From: Escherichia coli
GTDB lineage: Bacteria > Pseudomonadota > Gammaproteobacteria > Enterobacterales > Enterobacteriaceae
Strand: one strand, 5' to 3'
NCBI RefSeq assembly: GCF_009931435.1
Contig: NZ_CP043414.1
DNA: 64,000 nucleotides
The translations under genes and the position numbers were made by a program. Positions 5,292-54,525 of this stretch are shown here, one piece after another. How positions within the stretch are numbered: position 1 is the stretch's first letter; every line of letters starts with the position of its first letter. The notes under the pieces were generated by a model. The model was not told the DNA's origin. It made no database searches and saw only the letters and a program-made list of their open reading frames with translations.

Positions 5292-5954
5292 ATGGATTAT
5301 ACGCTCACCCGCATAGATCCCAACGGTGAGAACGACCGTTACCCCCTGCAAAAGCAGGAGATCGTAACCGACCCTCTGGAGCAAGAAGTTAACAAAAACG
5401 TGTTTATGGGCAAGCTCAATGACATGGTTAACTGGGGTCGTAAAAACTCAATTTGGCCGTATAACTTCGGTCTTTCCTGCTGTTACGTTGAGATGGTGAC
5501 TTCGTTTACCGCGGTGCATGACGTGGCACGTTTTGGCGCAGAAGTATTGCGTGCTTCGCCGCGTCAGGCTGACCTGATGGTGGTTGCAGGAACCTGCTTT
5601 ACCAAAATGGCACCGGTTATTCAGCGTCTGTATGACCAGATGCTGGAACCAAAATGGGTTATCTCAATGGGGGCCTGTGCCAACTCTGGCGGTATGTACG
5701 ATATTTATTCCGTTGTGCAGGGCGTTGATAAATTCATCCCGGTTGATGTGTATATCCCGGGCTGCCCGCCACGTCCTGAAGCGTACATGCAGGCACTGAT
5801 GCTGTTGCAGGAATCTATCGGTAAAGAACGTCGTCCGCTCTCCTGGGTGGTTGGCGATCAGGGCGTTTATCGCGCCAATATGCAATCAGAGCGCGAACGC
5901 AAGCGCGGTGAACGCATTGCCGTTACCAACCTGCGTACACCTGACGAGATTTAA
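5292..5954 (+). CDS. nuoB: NADH:quinone oxidoreductase subunit B (N2 Fe-S cluster subunit)
   Basis: 220 aa; conserved CCxxE ... GxCxxxGG ... GCPP cysteine motifs. Confidence 0.93.
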
Positions 5955-44935: not shown

Positions 44936-45154
44936 TTCCGCCACTCCGTGCCGGTTTACTGCACCGGCACATTCCCCCTCCGGCAAAATTTGTCCAACCT
45001 GTTGTACTCAATAAGAAAAAATCCGTGCGCTGATTCACAAATTTGTGCGTAATTTCTCCAGTCCGCTGGACGAGGTGCGGGATTTGATGCGCTTCACAAT
45101 TTTACTCCCCCTGAGCAACGAGACTGATTCCAGTATCTAAGACTGGAGTCCAGT

Positions 45155-45937
45155 ATGTTGGAATCAAGCAAAGTTCCCGCCCTGACACGGGCTATTGATA
45201 TTCTCAATTTGATTGCCCGCATTGGCCCCTGTAGTGCTGCGACGATCATTGACACATTGGGGATCCCTAAAAGCACGGCCTATTTGCTGCTTAATGAACT
45301 CAGGCGTCAGCGTTTTCTTAGCCTTGATCACCAGGAAAATTTTTGTTTGTGGACCAAGCTGGTGGAGCTTTCCGGTCATGCGTTAAGCAAGATGGATCTC
45401 CGGGAACTGGCTCGACCGCGTTTGACGCAACTGATGGATACCACCGGGCTGTTATGTCACCTGGGGATTATTGATAACGGCAGCGCTTATTACATTTTGA
45501 AAGTGGAGTCATCAGCCACTATCAGCGTGCGTTCCCATGAAGGAAAAAGCCTTTCGCTTTATCGCTCCGGAATAGGTAAATGCCTGCTAGCCTGGCAACC
45601 TGCATCTGTACAGCAAAGTATTATCGAAGGGCTGGTCTGGGAGCAGGTGACACCCACAACGATTACTCATCCACAGCAACTTCACGAAGAACTGGCGCGT
45701 ATTCGCCGTCAGGGCTGGAGCTATGACAATGGCGAAGATTACGCCGATGTCCGTTGTGTTGCTGCGCCGGTGTTTAACGCCAATAACGAGCTTACCGCTG
45801 CGATCTCGGTGGTCGGTACCCGCTTACAAATCAATGAAGAATACCGTGATTATCTGGCGGGCAAGGCCATTGCCTGCGCCAGGGATATTTCACGTCTGTT
45901 GGGATGGAAAAGTCCCTTTGACTTACAGGCCTCATAA
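45155..45937 (+). CDS. rhmR: IclR-family transcriptional regulator RhmR
   Basis: 260 aa; N-terminal HTH, C-terminal IclR effector domain; precedes the rhamnonate genes. Confidence 0.85.
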
Positions 45938-45951
45938 CAATGGAGAACAGC

Positions 45952-47157
45952 ATGACCCTACCAAAAATCAAACAGGTTCGCGCCTGGTTTACTGGCGGTG
46001 CGACAGCAGAAAAAGGCGCTGGCGGCGGTGATTATCACGACCAGGGGGCGAATCACTGGATTGACGATCATATTGCCACCCCGATGAGTAAATACCGCGA
46101 TTACGAGCAGTCACGCCAGTCATTTGGCATTAACGTTCTTGGCACGTTGATTATTGAAGTCGAAGCAGAAAACGGCCAGACCGGATTCGCCGTTTCGACA
46201 GCCGGTGAAATGGGCTGTTTTATTGTCGAAAAACACCTTAACCGTTTCATTGAGGGTAAATGTGTCAGTGATATCAAACTGATCCACGATCAAATGCTCA
46301 ATGCCACCCTGTATTACTCCGGCTCTGGTGGCCTGGTGATGAATACGATTTCCTGTGTCGATCTGGCTCTGTGGGATCTGTTCGGCAAAGTGGTCGGGCT
46401 TCCGGTTTATAAACTTTTAGGCGGCGCAGTTCGTGATGAGATTCAGTTCTACGCCACAGGTGCGCGTCCGGATCTGGCAAAAGAGATGGGCTTTATCGGT
46501 GGCAAAATGCCGACGCACTGGGGGCCACATGATGGCGATGCGGGGATCCGCAAAGATGCCGCTATGGTCGCGGATATGCGTGAAAAATGCGGTGAGGATT
46601 TCTGGTTAATGCTCGACTGCTGGATGAGTCAGGACGTGAACTATGCCACCAAACTGGCCCACGCTTGCGCGCCCTATAACCTGAAATGGATCGAAGAGTG
46701 CCTGCCGCCACAGCAGTATGAAGGTTATCGTGAACTGAAACGCAACGCGCCAGTCGGAATGATGGTCACCAGCGGTGAGCATCACGGCACACTGCAATCT
46801 TTCCGTACGCTTTCAGAAACCGGTATCGACATTATGCAGCCGGATGTTGGCTGGTGCGGTGGCTTAACCACGCTGGTGGAAATTGCCGCAATCGCCAAAT
46901 CCAGAGGGCAACTGGTGGTGCCGCACGGTTCGTCTGTTTACTCTCACCATGCGGTGATCACCTTCACCAATACGCCATTCAGCGAATTCCTGATGACCAG
47001 CCCGGATTGTTCAACGATGCGTCCGCAATTTGATCCGATTCTGCTTAATGAGCCAGTGCCAGTGAATGGTCGTATTCATAAATCAGTGCTTGATAAACCC
47101 GGTTTCGGCGTCGAGCTCAATCGTGACTGCAATTTGAAACGCCCCTACAGCCACTAA
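45952..47157 (+). CDS. rhmD: L-rhamnonate dehydratase RhmD (enolase superfamily)
   Basis: 401 aa from [13 protein letters not shown] with GGAGA RBS; an in-frame ATG at 45940 is an alternative start. Confidence 0.88.
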
Positions 47158-47213
47158 TCATTCCGGGCGTTGCTGTGACAACGGTAACGCCCACATATTT
47201 TAAGGAGCTTTTT

Positions 47214-48503
47214 ATGAGCACCGCTTTGCTTGACGCCGTGGTGAAGAAAAACCGTGCGCGTTTAATTCCGTTTATGTTGGCGCTGTATGTGCTGGCGTTT
47301 CTCGACCGTTCGAATATCGGTTTTGCCAAACAGACCTACCAGATTGATACCGGGCTGAGTAATGAAGCTTATGCGCTGGGAGCAGGCATTTTTTTTGTGG
47401 TATATGCGTTTCTGGGTGTTCCGGCGAATCTTTTGATGCGCAAACTGGGGGCAAGAACCTGGATTGGTACGACAACACTGCTGTGGGGATTTCTTTCGGC
47501 AGCCATGGCATGGGCCGATACTGAAGCGAAATTTCTGATCGTTCGCACTCTGCTTGGTGCTGCGGAGGCCGGGTTCTTCCCTGGTATGATTTATCTCACC
47601 TCGCAATGGTTTCCGCAGCGTAATCGCGCCAGCATTATGGGGCTGTTCTATATGGGCGCACCGTTGGCGTTAACACTGGGATCACCGCTTTCCGGCGCGC
47701 TGCTGGAGATGCATGGATTTATGGGGCATCCCGGCTGGTTCTGGATGTTTGTGATTGAAGGATTGCTGGCAGTCGGCGCTGGTGTATTCACATTCTTTTG
47801 GCTTGATGACACGCCAGAGCAGGCTCGTTTTCTGAGTAAAGAAGAAAAAACGTTGCTTATCAACCAACTGGCAAGTGAAGAACAACAGAAAGTGACTTCT
47901 CGACTGAGCGATGCGCTGCGTAATGGGCGAGTCTGGCAACTGGCGATTATCTACCTGACCATTCAGGTGGCGGTTTACGGATTAATTTTCTTCCTGCCGA
48001 CGCAGGTTGCTGCATTGTTGGGGACAAAAGTGGGCTTTACGGCGTCGGTGGTCACCGCCATTCCGTGGGTCGCGGCCTTGTTTGGGACCTGGCTTATTCC
48101 GCGCTATTCCGATAAAACCGGCGAACGGCGTAATGTCGCGGCGCTGACATTACTGGCGGCGGGCATTGGTATTGGTCTCTCCGGGCTGCTTTCTCCAGTA
48201 CTGGCGATCGTAGCGCTGTGTGTTGCAGCCATCGGGTTTATTGCCGTGCAGCCGGTGTTCTGGACGATGCCGACACAACTGCTTTCCGGTACGGCGCTGG
48301 CGGCGGGGATTGGTTTTGTAAACCTGTTTGGTGCAGTGGGCGGGTTTATTGCCCCGATCCTGCGCGTGAAAGCAGAAACGTTGTTTGCCAGCGATGCGGC
48401 TGGATTACTGACGCTGGCAGCGGTGGCGGTCATCGGTTCGCTGATTATTTTCACTCTGCGTGTAAATCGCACTGTTGCGCAGACCGACGTGGCACATCAT
48501 TAA
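47214..48503 (+). CDS. rhmT: MFS transporter RhmT (putative L-rhamnonate transporter)
   Basis: 429 aa from [10 protein letters not shown] with AAGGAG RBS; multi-TM major facilitator protein. Confidence 0.88.
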
Positions 48504-48519
48504 TAGGTTAAGGAACACC

Positions 48520-49323
48520 ATGAACGCATTATTAACCAATCCCTTTAAAGAACGTTTACGCAAGGGCGAAGTGCAAATTGGTCTGTGGTTAAGCTCGACT
48601 ACTTCTTATATGGCAGAAATTGCCGCCACCTCCGGTTATGACTGGTTGCTGATTGACGGGGAGCACGCGCCAAACACCATTCAGGATCTTTATCACCAGC
48701 TACAGGCGGTAGCGCCCTATGCCAGCCAACCCGTGATCCGTCCGGTGGAAGCCAGTAAGTCGCTGATTAAACAAGTCCTGGATATTGGCGCGCAAACTCT
48801 ACTGATCCCGATGGTCGATACTGCCGATCAGGCACGTCAGGTGGTGTCTGCCACGCGCTATCCTCCCTACGGTGAGCGTGGTGTCGGGGCCAGTGTGGCA
48901 CGGGCTGCGCGCTGGGGACGCATTGAGAATTACATGGCGCAAGTCAACGATTCGCTTTGTCTGTTGGTGCAGGTGGAAAGTAAAACAGCACTGGATAACC
49001 TGGACGAAATCCTCGACGTCGAAGGGATTGACGGCGTGTTTATTGGACCTGCGGATCTTTCTGCCTCGTTGGGCTACCCGGATAACGCCGGGCACCCGGA
49101 AGTGCAGCGAATTATTGAAACCAGTATTCGGCGGATCCGTGCTGCGGGTAAAGCGGCTGGTTTTCTGGCTGTGGCTCCTGATATGGCGCAGCAATGCCTG
49201 GCATGGGGAGCGAACTTTGTCGCTGTTGGCGTTGACACGATGCTCTACAGCGATGCCCTGGATCAACGACTGGCGATGTTTAAATCAGGCAAAAATGAGC
49301 CACGCATAAAAGGTAGTTATTGA
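48520..49323 (+). CDS. rhmA: 2-keto-3-deoxy-L-rhamnonate aldolase RhmA (HpcH/HpaI aldolase family)
   Basis: 267 aa from [13 protein letters not shown]; class II aldolase fold. Confidence 0.88.
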
Positions 49324-49329
49324 TATCAA

Positions 49330-49358
49330 AGGCCCACGGGGAATTGCATGTGGGCCTG
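49330..49358 (+). terminator. Hairpin between convergent rhmA and rpnB
   Basis: aggcccac ... gtgggcct stem followed by a T-rich tract. Confidence 0.45.
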
Positions 49359-49364
49359 TGTTTA

Positions 49365-50267
49365 TTAGTGGTTATTGGCTGCAAGATCGGCTTCGCTTAG
49401 CTGGATGGCTGCGAGCACCTGGTCACGATCAATGCCCTGTTCCAGCATGCGCAAGGCAATTTTAATGGCTTGTTCATGCATGCCTTCCTGCCAGCCAATT
49501 TGATGCCCTTCCTGCCGTAGCCGTTCAGCAATAGTCATCAATCTCTCCTTTTGTAGTGGTGAACGTTCGGCAATCTCCTCAATAAAACGGGTGAAACGGG
49601 AGGTATCGCCGCATTGCAGCAGATAATTAAACAGCGTTTGTAGCTGGCTGTCATTAGTGAAGCCTCTAACCAAAAGCGTGGTGATCCTGTCGACCATACC
49701 GATTAAATCGCGGTCGCGAATATGCTTTTGAATCAGTTCCAGCAGAGCTATACGCCGATGTTGCATGATCTCATCGTCAGGCACGATGGTGATATCCACC
49801 AACGGAAAAGCTTCGGTGTACAACTGCCGGGCAAGTTGCGGATCATCAAACTCATCCAGCCAGTTAAGTGAGTATGGGTAGGGCGAGGTTTCGCCGTGAT
49901 AAAACAGCAACGGCACCACCAGAGGGACTCTGTCATAGCCTTTGTCCAGGTGACGCTGCATGGCGGCGGTGGCATAGCGCATTAGCCGAAAAGCCATATT
50001 CTTTTCTGCGGAACTTTGATGTTCAATCACGCAGTAGATATAGCCGTCACCATCGCTGGTTTCCACCGACCACAAAACATCCGAGTAGTAAGCGCGTAAA
50101 CTTTTTTCAATAAAGCTGGTGGGTTCCAGGCGTAAGGTTTGCAGGTTGCAAAGTTTACGCAGTGGCTCCGGTAGATGTATTTCGAGAAAATCCCGCGCGG
50201 TTTCGGGCGAGAACATAAAGGTTTTAAACACCGCATCATGCGGGGAGGAGGTTGTTGATTCGGTCAT
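49365..50267 (-). CDS. rpnB: Rpn-family recombination-promoting nuclease (YhgA-like, transposase_31 / PD-(D/E)XK)
   Basis: 300 aa; recognised as YfaD/RpnB ([33 protein letters not shown]...). Confidence 0.8.
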
Positions 50268-50412
50268 GGTTGTCCGTCACCTGATATTTATGATGACGCG
50301 ACATTACGGGGATCTCGAAACAATGACATCTGCCAGTTTCTGCCTTTGCGAGACGTTTTCAGAAGAATTTTCAAAGCGATGCAACGCATACATTGAGCGA
50401 GGAATCGCGCCC

Positions 50413-50447
50413 GCAAAAATGCCCGATAAGCAATGCGCTTACCGGGC
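50413..50447 (-). terminator. Rho-independent terminator downstream of glpC
   Basis: On the minus strand gcccggtaagc ... gcttatcgggc stem (one mismatch) followed by ATTTTT. Confidence 0.6.
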
Positions 50448-50460
50448 ATCACAAGGAAGA

Positions 50461-54525
<4,065 letters not shown>

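Follow-up and report, generated by a model that had tools for sequence, protein, structure and literature searches.

The rpnE gene between the rhm and glp operons of Escherichia coli: a probable gene-within-gene nuclease/antitoxin of the Rpn family

The open reading frame that separates the rhm and glp operons in the analyzed stretch of the Escherichia coli chromosome (64,000 nucleotides of contig NZ_CP043414.1, assembly GCF_009931435.1; hereafter the window) is an orthologue of rpnE (yfaD) and most likely represents a gene-within-gene nuclease/antitoxin of the toxin-antitoxin or defense type rather than a transposon gene. The orthology, the domain content, the catalytic residues, the conserved internal start, the variation in repeats and units, the fixed location and the purifying selection are direct observations on the window and its relatives and carry this conclusion. 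Previous publications already cover the gene itself, the Rpn family, the nested antitoxin gene and the occurrence of ypaA in some strains but not in others. The practical yield of the present analysis consists of corrections, namely, that the gene is rpnE and not rpnB, that the transposase label is misleading, and that the recombination phenotype has not been seen for RpnE; the substitutions that are private to the K-12 allele provide one modest lead.

Identity and location of the gene

A single long open reading frame at 49365..50267 on the minus strand starts with ATG and encodes RpnE_L, a protein of 300 amino acids followed by a stop codon. Residues 8-209 match the Pfam family PF04754 (Transposase_31/YhgA-like) with an E-value of 5.5e-88 and a score of 294 bits (cutoff 21), which is far beyond chance. 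The protein scores 702 bits against the NCBIfam equivalog NF007418 (cutoff 583) and 174 bits against TIGR01784, [quoted passage not shown] (cutoff 52); the score against the NCBIfam RpnA model, 429 bits, is below the cutoff of that model. At the protein level, the window gene product is 95% identical to RpnE of K-12, and 61%, 66% and 50% identical to RpnA, RpnB and RpnC, respectively.

On one side of the gene, rhmA (yfaU) is encoded on the plus strand and ends at 49323, including the stop codon, with the 3' end of rpnE at 49365; therefore, the two genes are convergent and separated by a spacer of 41 bp (49324..49364), just as a preliminary description of this DNA had proposed. On the other side lies glpC, also on the minus strand; it ends at 50461, leaving 193 bp of intergenic DNA upstream of the rpnE start. 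The syntenic order in E. coli is yfaX-rhmD-yfaV-yfaU / rpnE / glpC-glpB-glpA, in agreement with the RefSeq annotation, and both the coordinates and the placement between the rhm and glp operons in the preliminary description stand. The coordinates of the features discussed below are given in Table 1.

The name under which the gene had been described, “rpnB (yfaD)”, does not stand. At other E. coli loci, RefSeq names the syntenic gene rpnE, and YfaD is equated with RpnE in the literature (PMC5350276). The equivalog score, the highest identity among the paralogues and the position between glpC and rhmA all identify the RpnE orthologue. Orthology to RpnB was considered and rejected: rpnB is yfcI, which in a K-12-type genome is flanked by yfcH and hisP and, in K-12, is located about 65 kb from rpnE. 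Both the locus and the identity (95% to RpnE vs 66% to RpnB) thus establish rpnE as the correct name and show “rpnB (yfaD)” to be wrong.

Table 1. Features of the rpnE locus in the window
Feature	Coordinates	Strand	Basis
Hairpin GGCCCAC-N12-GTGGGCC in the 41-bp spacer	49331..49356	.	folding
rpnE_S, 57 aa, from the M244 ATG (49536..49538) to the shared stop; predicted antitoxin/oligomerization domain	49365..49538	-	
WQEG, present once (residues 259-262), at the hypervariable site of four-residue repeats	49482..49493	-	orthologue comparison
Internal Shine-Dalgarno AAGGAGAG, within codons K240-E241-R242	49543..49550	-	direct reading
Transposase_31/YhgA-like domain, residues 8-209	49641..50246	-	Pfam envelope
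Codon 155, consensus P in the window	49803..49805	-	
PDDEI motif, residues 163-167 of the protein		-	invariant in K-12 paralogues (PMC5350276)
Predicted PD-(D/E)XK core, about residues 21-124	49896..50207	-	AlphaFold models
Codon 107, consensus L in the window	49947..49949	-	
Active-site codons D63 (50079..50081), E82 (50022..50024) and Q84 (50016..50018)	50016..50081	-	identity to RpnA
Upstream region with putative rpnE_L promoter and weak ribosome-binding site	50268..50414	-	direct reading

Nuclease domain and active site

The PF04754 match and the intact catalytic residues bear out the earlier assignment of this gene to the Rpn/YhgA-like nucleases of the PD-(D/E)XK type. Six functional residues, D11, D63, E82, Q84, R94 and D165, are the same as in RpnA and do not vary among 13 rpnE orthologues or in RpnA to RpnC of K-12; across 37 family members, each of these shows either no variation or a conservation of at least 90%. 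In RpnA, changes at these six positions alter the activity, and the substitutions D11A, D63A, E82A and Q84K eliminate all phenotypes (PMC5350276). The inspection of the catalytic D/E/K residues that had been recommended along with that assignment thus finds all six in place, and a catalytic pseudogene is thereby excluded. In the AlphaFold models, the predicted core follows the order alpha-beta-beta-beta-alpha-beta (H21-31, E40-48, E61-70, E73-84, H91-108, E116-124), with D63 located on strand 2 and E82 and Q84 on strand 3. Magnesium-dependent DNA endonuclease activity has been demonstrated for RpnA only (PMC5350276).

The N-terminal domain of rpnE is under purifying selection, with pairwise dN/dS (omega) values between 0.03 and 0.11; in the comparison with Citrobacter, the dN of rpnE is 2.5-10 times that of the neighboring genes. 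It appears very improbable that rpnE is a decaying pseudogene or remnant, a reading that draws on the inactivity of the K-12 allele in assays, with its two private substitutions at conserved positions, and on the disrupted copies in E. whittamii and C. youngae, both addressed below.

Internal start and the predicted small protein

The internal Shine-Dalgarno sequence AAGGAGAG is followed, after 4 nt, by the in-frame ATG of codon 244 (49538..49536). The methionine at this position and the adjacent T245 are invariant in the 37 family members, and an SD-like motif precedes the M244 codon in 35 of the 37. Where Lys-Glu is encoded at the position of this motif, which is the case in 21 members, the lysine codon is invariably AAG (21/21), and the hexamer AAGGAG is present in 19. 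The first 11 residues of RpnA_S in the crystal structure (PDB 7TH0) are identical to residues 244-254 of the rpnE protein.

Zhong et al. (2023) described rpn genes as genes-within-genes, in which the internal start yields RpnS, the C-terminal domain, that binds and inhibits the toxic RpnL (PMC10400941). According to the same study, the blocking of RpnL by RpnS was demonstrated for RpnA, RpnB and RpnC only, and a toxin is neutralized only by S proteins with the matching repeat number; the K240R/E241D/M244L changes in RpnA abolish RpnA_S; the RpnE_S protein of K-12 was detected via tagging and ribosome profiling, and the YpaA protein was detected as well; RpnS is more abundant than RpnL, and RpnE_L belongs to the small number of RpnL proteins that can be detected in the absence of stress (PMC10400941). 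As far as can be read from the nucleotide sequence, the window fits this published architecture fully. The ribosome-binding site of the main start of rpnE_L (GACGGACAACC before the ATG) is much weaker than the internal Shine-Dalgarno sequence, which is consistent with the reported excess of RpnS over RpnL.

A Pfam scan with the 57-aa S protein alone yields only sub-threshold HTH-like matches, to RepB_primase_C (22.8 bits, cutoff 26.1) and HTH_7, and no match to DUF4351.

Repeat units and duplication of the S unit

The region encoding the S protein is the variable part of the gene. The four-residue repeats in the shared helix, the first of the S region, differ in number between strains and are a feature of the family (PMC10400941), and rpnE orthologues contain from 1 to 6 units of the WQEG, KLEG, LQEG and KVEG types, with protein lengths of 300-320 aa; the window rpnE, with one WQEG, has the minimum count. 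In most relatives, the S proteins are 49, 53, 57, 61, 65, 69, 73, 77 or 85 aa long, i.e., the lengths mostly differ in steps of four residues.

On a larger scale, the S unit is tandemly duplicated (195 bp) in K-12-type strains, so that rpnE ends with ...FEREIVLATTQLTDADIPNCH and a second SD-ATG unit (ypaA) follows directly; this ypaA has been described as an additional copy in K-12 (rpnE_Ss) that stands on its own downstream of rpnE (PMC10400941). In RefSeq, the K-12-type ypaA unit appears as an incomplete “hypothetical protein” pseudogene, yet it is an expressed small protein (PMC10400941). The window contains one S unit with a ypaA-type tail, to which the N-terminal domain is joined directly, and lacks a free-standing second antitoxin gene. 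The K-12-type junction between the units is found in 3132 of the 5426 complete E. coli genomes; therefore, about 42% of the genomes are single-unit like the window. The outgroups (E. albertii, other Escherichia species, Citrobacter and S. diarizonae) are single-unit as well, with a similar tail. Strain 2013C-4282, the closest relative of the window in the glp region, has two units, the second of which matches the sole unit of the window. Judging from these comparisons, the single-unit form in the window could be either ancestral or the product of a secondary fusion.

A related observation comes from “E. coli” SCPM-O-B-8794, which has a single-unit rpn with six repeats and a tail that is a mosaic of the tails of unit 1 and unit 2 of K-12. 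This mosaic tail suggests that S units collapsed by way of a crossover located within the tail.

Genomic distribution and stability of the locus

DNA of the rpnE N-terminal domain is present in 5420 of the 5426 complete E. coli genomes, at 5432 places with a median of one per genome, all of them on chromosomes and none on a plasmid. The junction of rhmA, the spacer and the rpn tail is found in 5408 of the 5426, and within the E. coli locus, the variation is limited to the 3' end of rpnE. Outside E. coli, an rpn orthologue adjoins glpC in E. albertii, E. whittamii, two other Escherichia species, several Citrobacter (67-69% identity) and Salmonella diarizonae, and the full order glpC-rpn-rhmA-rhmT-rhmD is retained in E. 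albertii, C. sedlakii and C. braakii. Thus, rpnE is a long-resident, vertically inherited, non-mobile core chromosomal gene. The comparison of gene content across strains that the preliminary description had suggested gives a divided answer. Within E. coli the locus is stable, but other species frequently lack part or all of the rhm operon on the side that borders the rpn 3' end (seven of the loci compared); nothing connects these losses to Rpn activity.

Several individual loci are worth recording. In E. coli 06-00048 (locus L008, 3667..8618), the interval from yfaY to glpC contains a four-gene chaperone-usher fimbrial operon in place of yfaX-rhmD-yfaV-yfaU-rpnE. In Escherichia sp. E1V33 and E. 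whittamii, rhmA is reduced to codons 220-267, and in Escherichia sp. MOD1-EC7003, just an rhmD fragment is left beside the rpn 3' end; rpn is retained in all three. The rpn gene beside glpC is disrupted in E. whittamii, where a stop codon following residue 184 interrupts the frame, and in Citrobacter youngae ATCC 29220, where it has a frameshift; therefore, the gene is dispensable in some lineages.

The window also shows a change in its relationship to other strains at this locus. Identity to K-12-like and B2-like E. coli is 97-99% across the rhm operon and rpnE (45000..49900) vs 91-96% across the rpnE-glpC intergenic region and glpCBA (about 50000..54000), and the rhm genes have a dS of 0.07-0.10 relative to K-12, compared with 0.23 for glpC. 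This shift near position 50000 therefore marks a boundary of a recombination mosaic close to the 5' end of rpnE.

These observations bear on the proposal, made in the preliminary description, that the gene promotes RecA-independent recombination and contributes to the plasticity of its neighborhood. Under this explanation, rpnE would encode a transposase-like nuclease that has been domesticated and that makes the rhm-glp region variable among strains. Overexpressed RpnA to RpnD indeed raise RecA-independent recombination 2.9- to 49-fold (PMC5350276), and the truncated or lost rhm operons beside the rpn 3' end in several lineages, the one E. coli strain with a fimbrial operon in place of the rhm operon and rpnE, and the shift in divergence from K-12 near position 50000 can all be cited in its favor. 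However, RpnE specifically is the K-12 paralogue that has no effect in the assays of recombination, viability (toxicity) and SOS response, and rpn deletions do not account for basal RecA-independent recombination (PMC5350276). Furthermore, with the above counts, the E. coli locus is among the most stable, exceptions being rare, and such mosaic patterns of divergence are commonplace in E. coli and do not require a nuclease at the site. The truncated rhm side and the mosaic boundary are compatible with ordinary recombination, nothing links either of them to Rpn activity, and an rpnE-driven plasticity of this region appears unlikely.

Flanking signals and tests of mobility

The hairpin in the 41-bp spacer has a folding energy of -22.7 kcal/mol on the plus strand (z -3.9) and -15.8 kcal/mol on the minus strand (z -3.3) and is likely to function as a bidirectional terminator for rhmA and rpnE. 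Upstream of rpnE, the region assigned to the putative promoter of rpnE_L is bounded by the predicted terminator hairpin and T run of glpC at about 50415..50450, as detected by folding. A scan of 49200-50600 with consensus promoter and terminator models calls nothing, i.e., no sigma-70 site, no internal promoter and no spacer terminator, and an Rfam scan of the rpnE locus at E<=1 yields no matches. In the whole window, the sole Rfam match above the gathering score is the nuoG cis-regulatory motif (RF01748, 9690..9732, plus strand, 50.3 bits); no tRNA genes are found within the window.

The gene product carries the name “ISNCY family transposase” both in RefSeq, at four of the loci compared, and in NF007418. 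This name is misleading. The idea that rpnE is an active insertion-sequence transposase draws on database labels only, the Pfam name Transposase_31 and the NF007418 product name, and is effectively refuted by several lines of evidence. An inverted-repeat search in 3.2 kb around rpnE, in accord with the earlier statement that terminal inverted repeats are absent, reveals no pair that brackets the gene with one arm in each intergenic flank; the ten inverted pairs reported (12-20 nt, 79-92% complementary) are all located inside the coding sequences of rhmA, glpC or rpnE. The intergenic flanks, of just 41 and 193 bp, are taken up by predicted terminator hairpins. The single conserved chromosomal site, with a median of one copy per genome and none on plasmids, is at odds with an insertion sequence, and so is the GC content of rpnE, which, at about 0.50, is close to that of the neighbors (0.52-0.57). 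Finally, the catalytic domain is that of a nuclease, and transposition is not on record for any member of the family (PMC5350276). Recent transfer, judged by base composition, was considered separately and rejected, the GC content not being distinctive. “Domesticated mobile-element gene”, as applied to rpnE, is a historical and conjectural label.

The K-12 allele

Within the N-terminal domain, the RpnE proteins of K-12 and the window differ only by S20T, L107Q and P155L. Across 37 Rpn relatives, L107 is invariant and P155 is at least 90% conserved. L107Q is present in 355 and P155L in 356 of the 5426 complete E. coli genomes, and among the matches listed, all are laboratory strains of the K-12 type; the consensus proline at position 155, as in the window, is found in 5030 E. 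coli genomes.

The only RpnE that has been assayed is that of K-12, for which overexpression causes neither toxicity nor SOS induction nor stimulation of recombination (PMC5350276). It is conceivable, if on balance doubtful, that the reported inactivity is an artefact specific to the K-12 lineage, caused by L107Q and P155L, and that the natural allele would be an active toxin; an alternative cause is that RpnE_S and YpaA of the K-12 host neutralize the overexpressed protein. No discussion of a K-12-lineage-specific inactivity of RpnE was found in those rpn studies that were consulted. Because the sole RpnE assayed carries two private changes, natural alleles are the right material in which to test RpnE activity. 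Should the natural allele be active, rpnE would represent a core, vertically inherited Rpn toxin-antitoxin pair that has been kept at one locus since before the split of Escherichia and Citrobacter, and the specificity of which has been repeatedly reset through duplication and collapse of the S unit.

Proposed function

The observations described above are best compatible with the following scheme, in which the expression of RpnE_S, the binding between the L and S proteins, the toxicity of the nuclease and the antiphage role are extrapolated from experiments on K-12 and on paralogues. RpnE_L (300 aa) would combine an N-terminal metal-dependent DNA endonuclease of the PD-(D/E)XK type, with D63 and the E82-x-Q84 motif intact, with a C-terminal part that is predicted to form a small helical oligomerization domain. 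From the strong internal Shine-Dalgarno sequence and the ATG of codon 244, a separate and probably more abundant RpnE_S, comprising the last 57 residues, would be produced. By analogy to RpnA, RpnB and RpnC, RpnE_S would bind the C-terminal domain of the matching RpnE_L and hold the nuclease inactive, and the pairing interface would diversify by gain and loss of the four-residue repeats and by duplication or collapse of the S unit. The most likely role of such a pair would be abortive or antiphage defense, triggered when the balance between S and L is upset.

Phage protection in this family has been demonstrated only for the plasmid-borne paralogue RpnP2, against T-even phages (PMC10400941), and some features of rpnE run counter to a defense role: the gene lies between metabolic operons and not in a defense island, its near-universal presence in E. 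coli is unusual for a defense gene, and the PADLOC defense-system models yield no meaningful match to rpnE. These features can be read as signs of a conserved housekeeping or regulatory core factor, a DNA-binding protein or a weak nuclease, in which the toxin-antitoxin-like architecture would serve autoregulation instead of defense. The near-universal occurrence at one E. coli locus, the synteny that extends back to Citrobacter and Salmonella, the strong purifying selection and the metabolic neighbors are all in line with this explanation, as is the detection of RpnE_L in unstressed cells, and Zhong et al. allow for housekeeping roles of the family (PMC10400941). Nevertheless, a housekeeping function seems improbable given that no rpnE phenotype is known, that the C-terminal interface diversifies fast, as is typical of conflict systems, and that the pseudogenized copies in E. 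whittamii and C. youngae imply dispensability. A nuclease/antitoxin pair of the toxin-antitoxin or defense type is the preferred interpretation.

Comparison with known Rpn systems

The closest known counterpart is RpnE of K-12 (YfaD, b2244) together with YpaA/RpnE_Ss. The two systems share the glpC-rpnE-rhmA locus, 95% protein identity, the catalytic residues, the internal Shine-Dalgarno sequence and ATG at M244, and the single WQEG in the in-gene S region. They differ in that the S unit is duplicated (195 bp) in K-12, which adds ypaA, and single in the window, where it ends in the ypaA-type tail. Furthermore, K-12 carries L107Q and P155L, whereas the window conforms to the family consensus at both positions.

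RpnA (YhgA), the biochemically characterized representative of the family, which shows 61% identity, is like the window protein in D11, D63, E82, Q84, R94 and D165, in the PDDEI motif and in the codon of the internal start. Its small product, RpnA_S (PDB 7TH0), begins with the same 11 residues as the window RpnE_S but is 49 aa long compared to 57, the 8 extra residues of the window protein being located at the repeat site. RpnA is encoded at a different locus (feoC-bioH) and is a toxic, active nuclease (PMC5350276), whereas for the window RpnE, the toxicity of the nuclease is predicted by homology. RpnB (YfcI) belongs to the same family and has the same architecture but differs from the window protein in its locus (yfcH-hisP) and in showing only 66% identity. 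Finally, the plasmid system RpnP2_LS has the same L/S gene-within-gene design (PMC10400941); it is plasmid-borne and protects against T-even phages, whereas the window rpnE is a core chromosomal gene for which an antiphage role is suggested by this resemblance.
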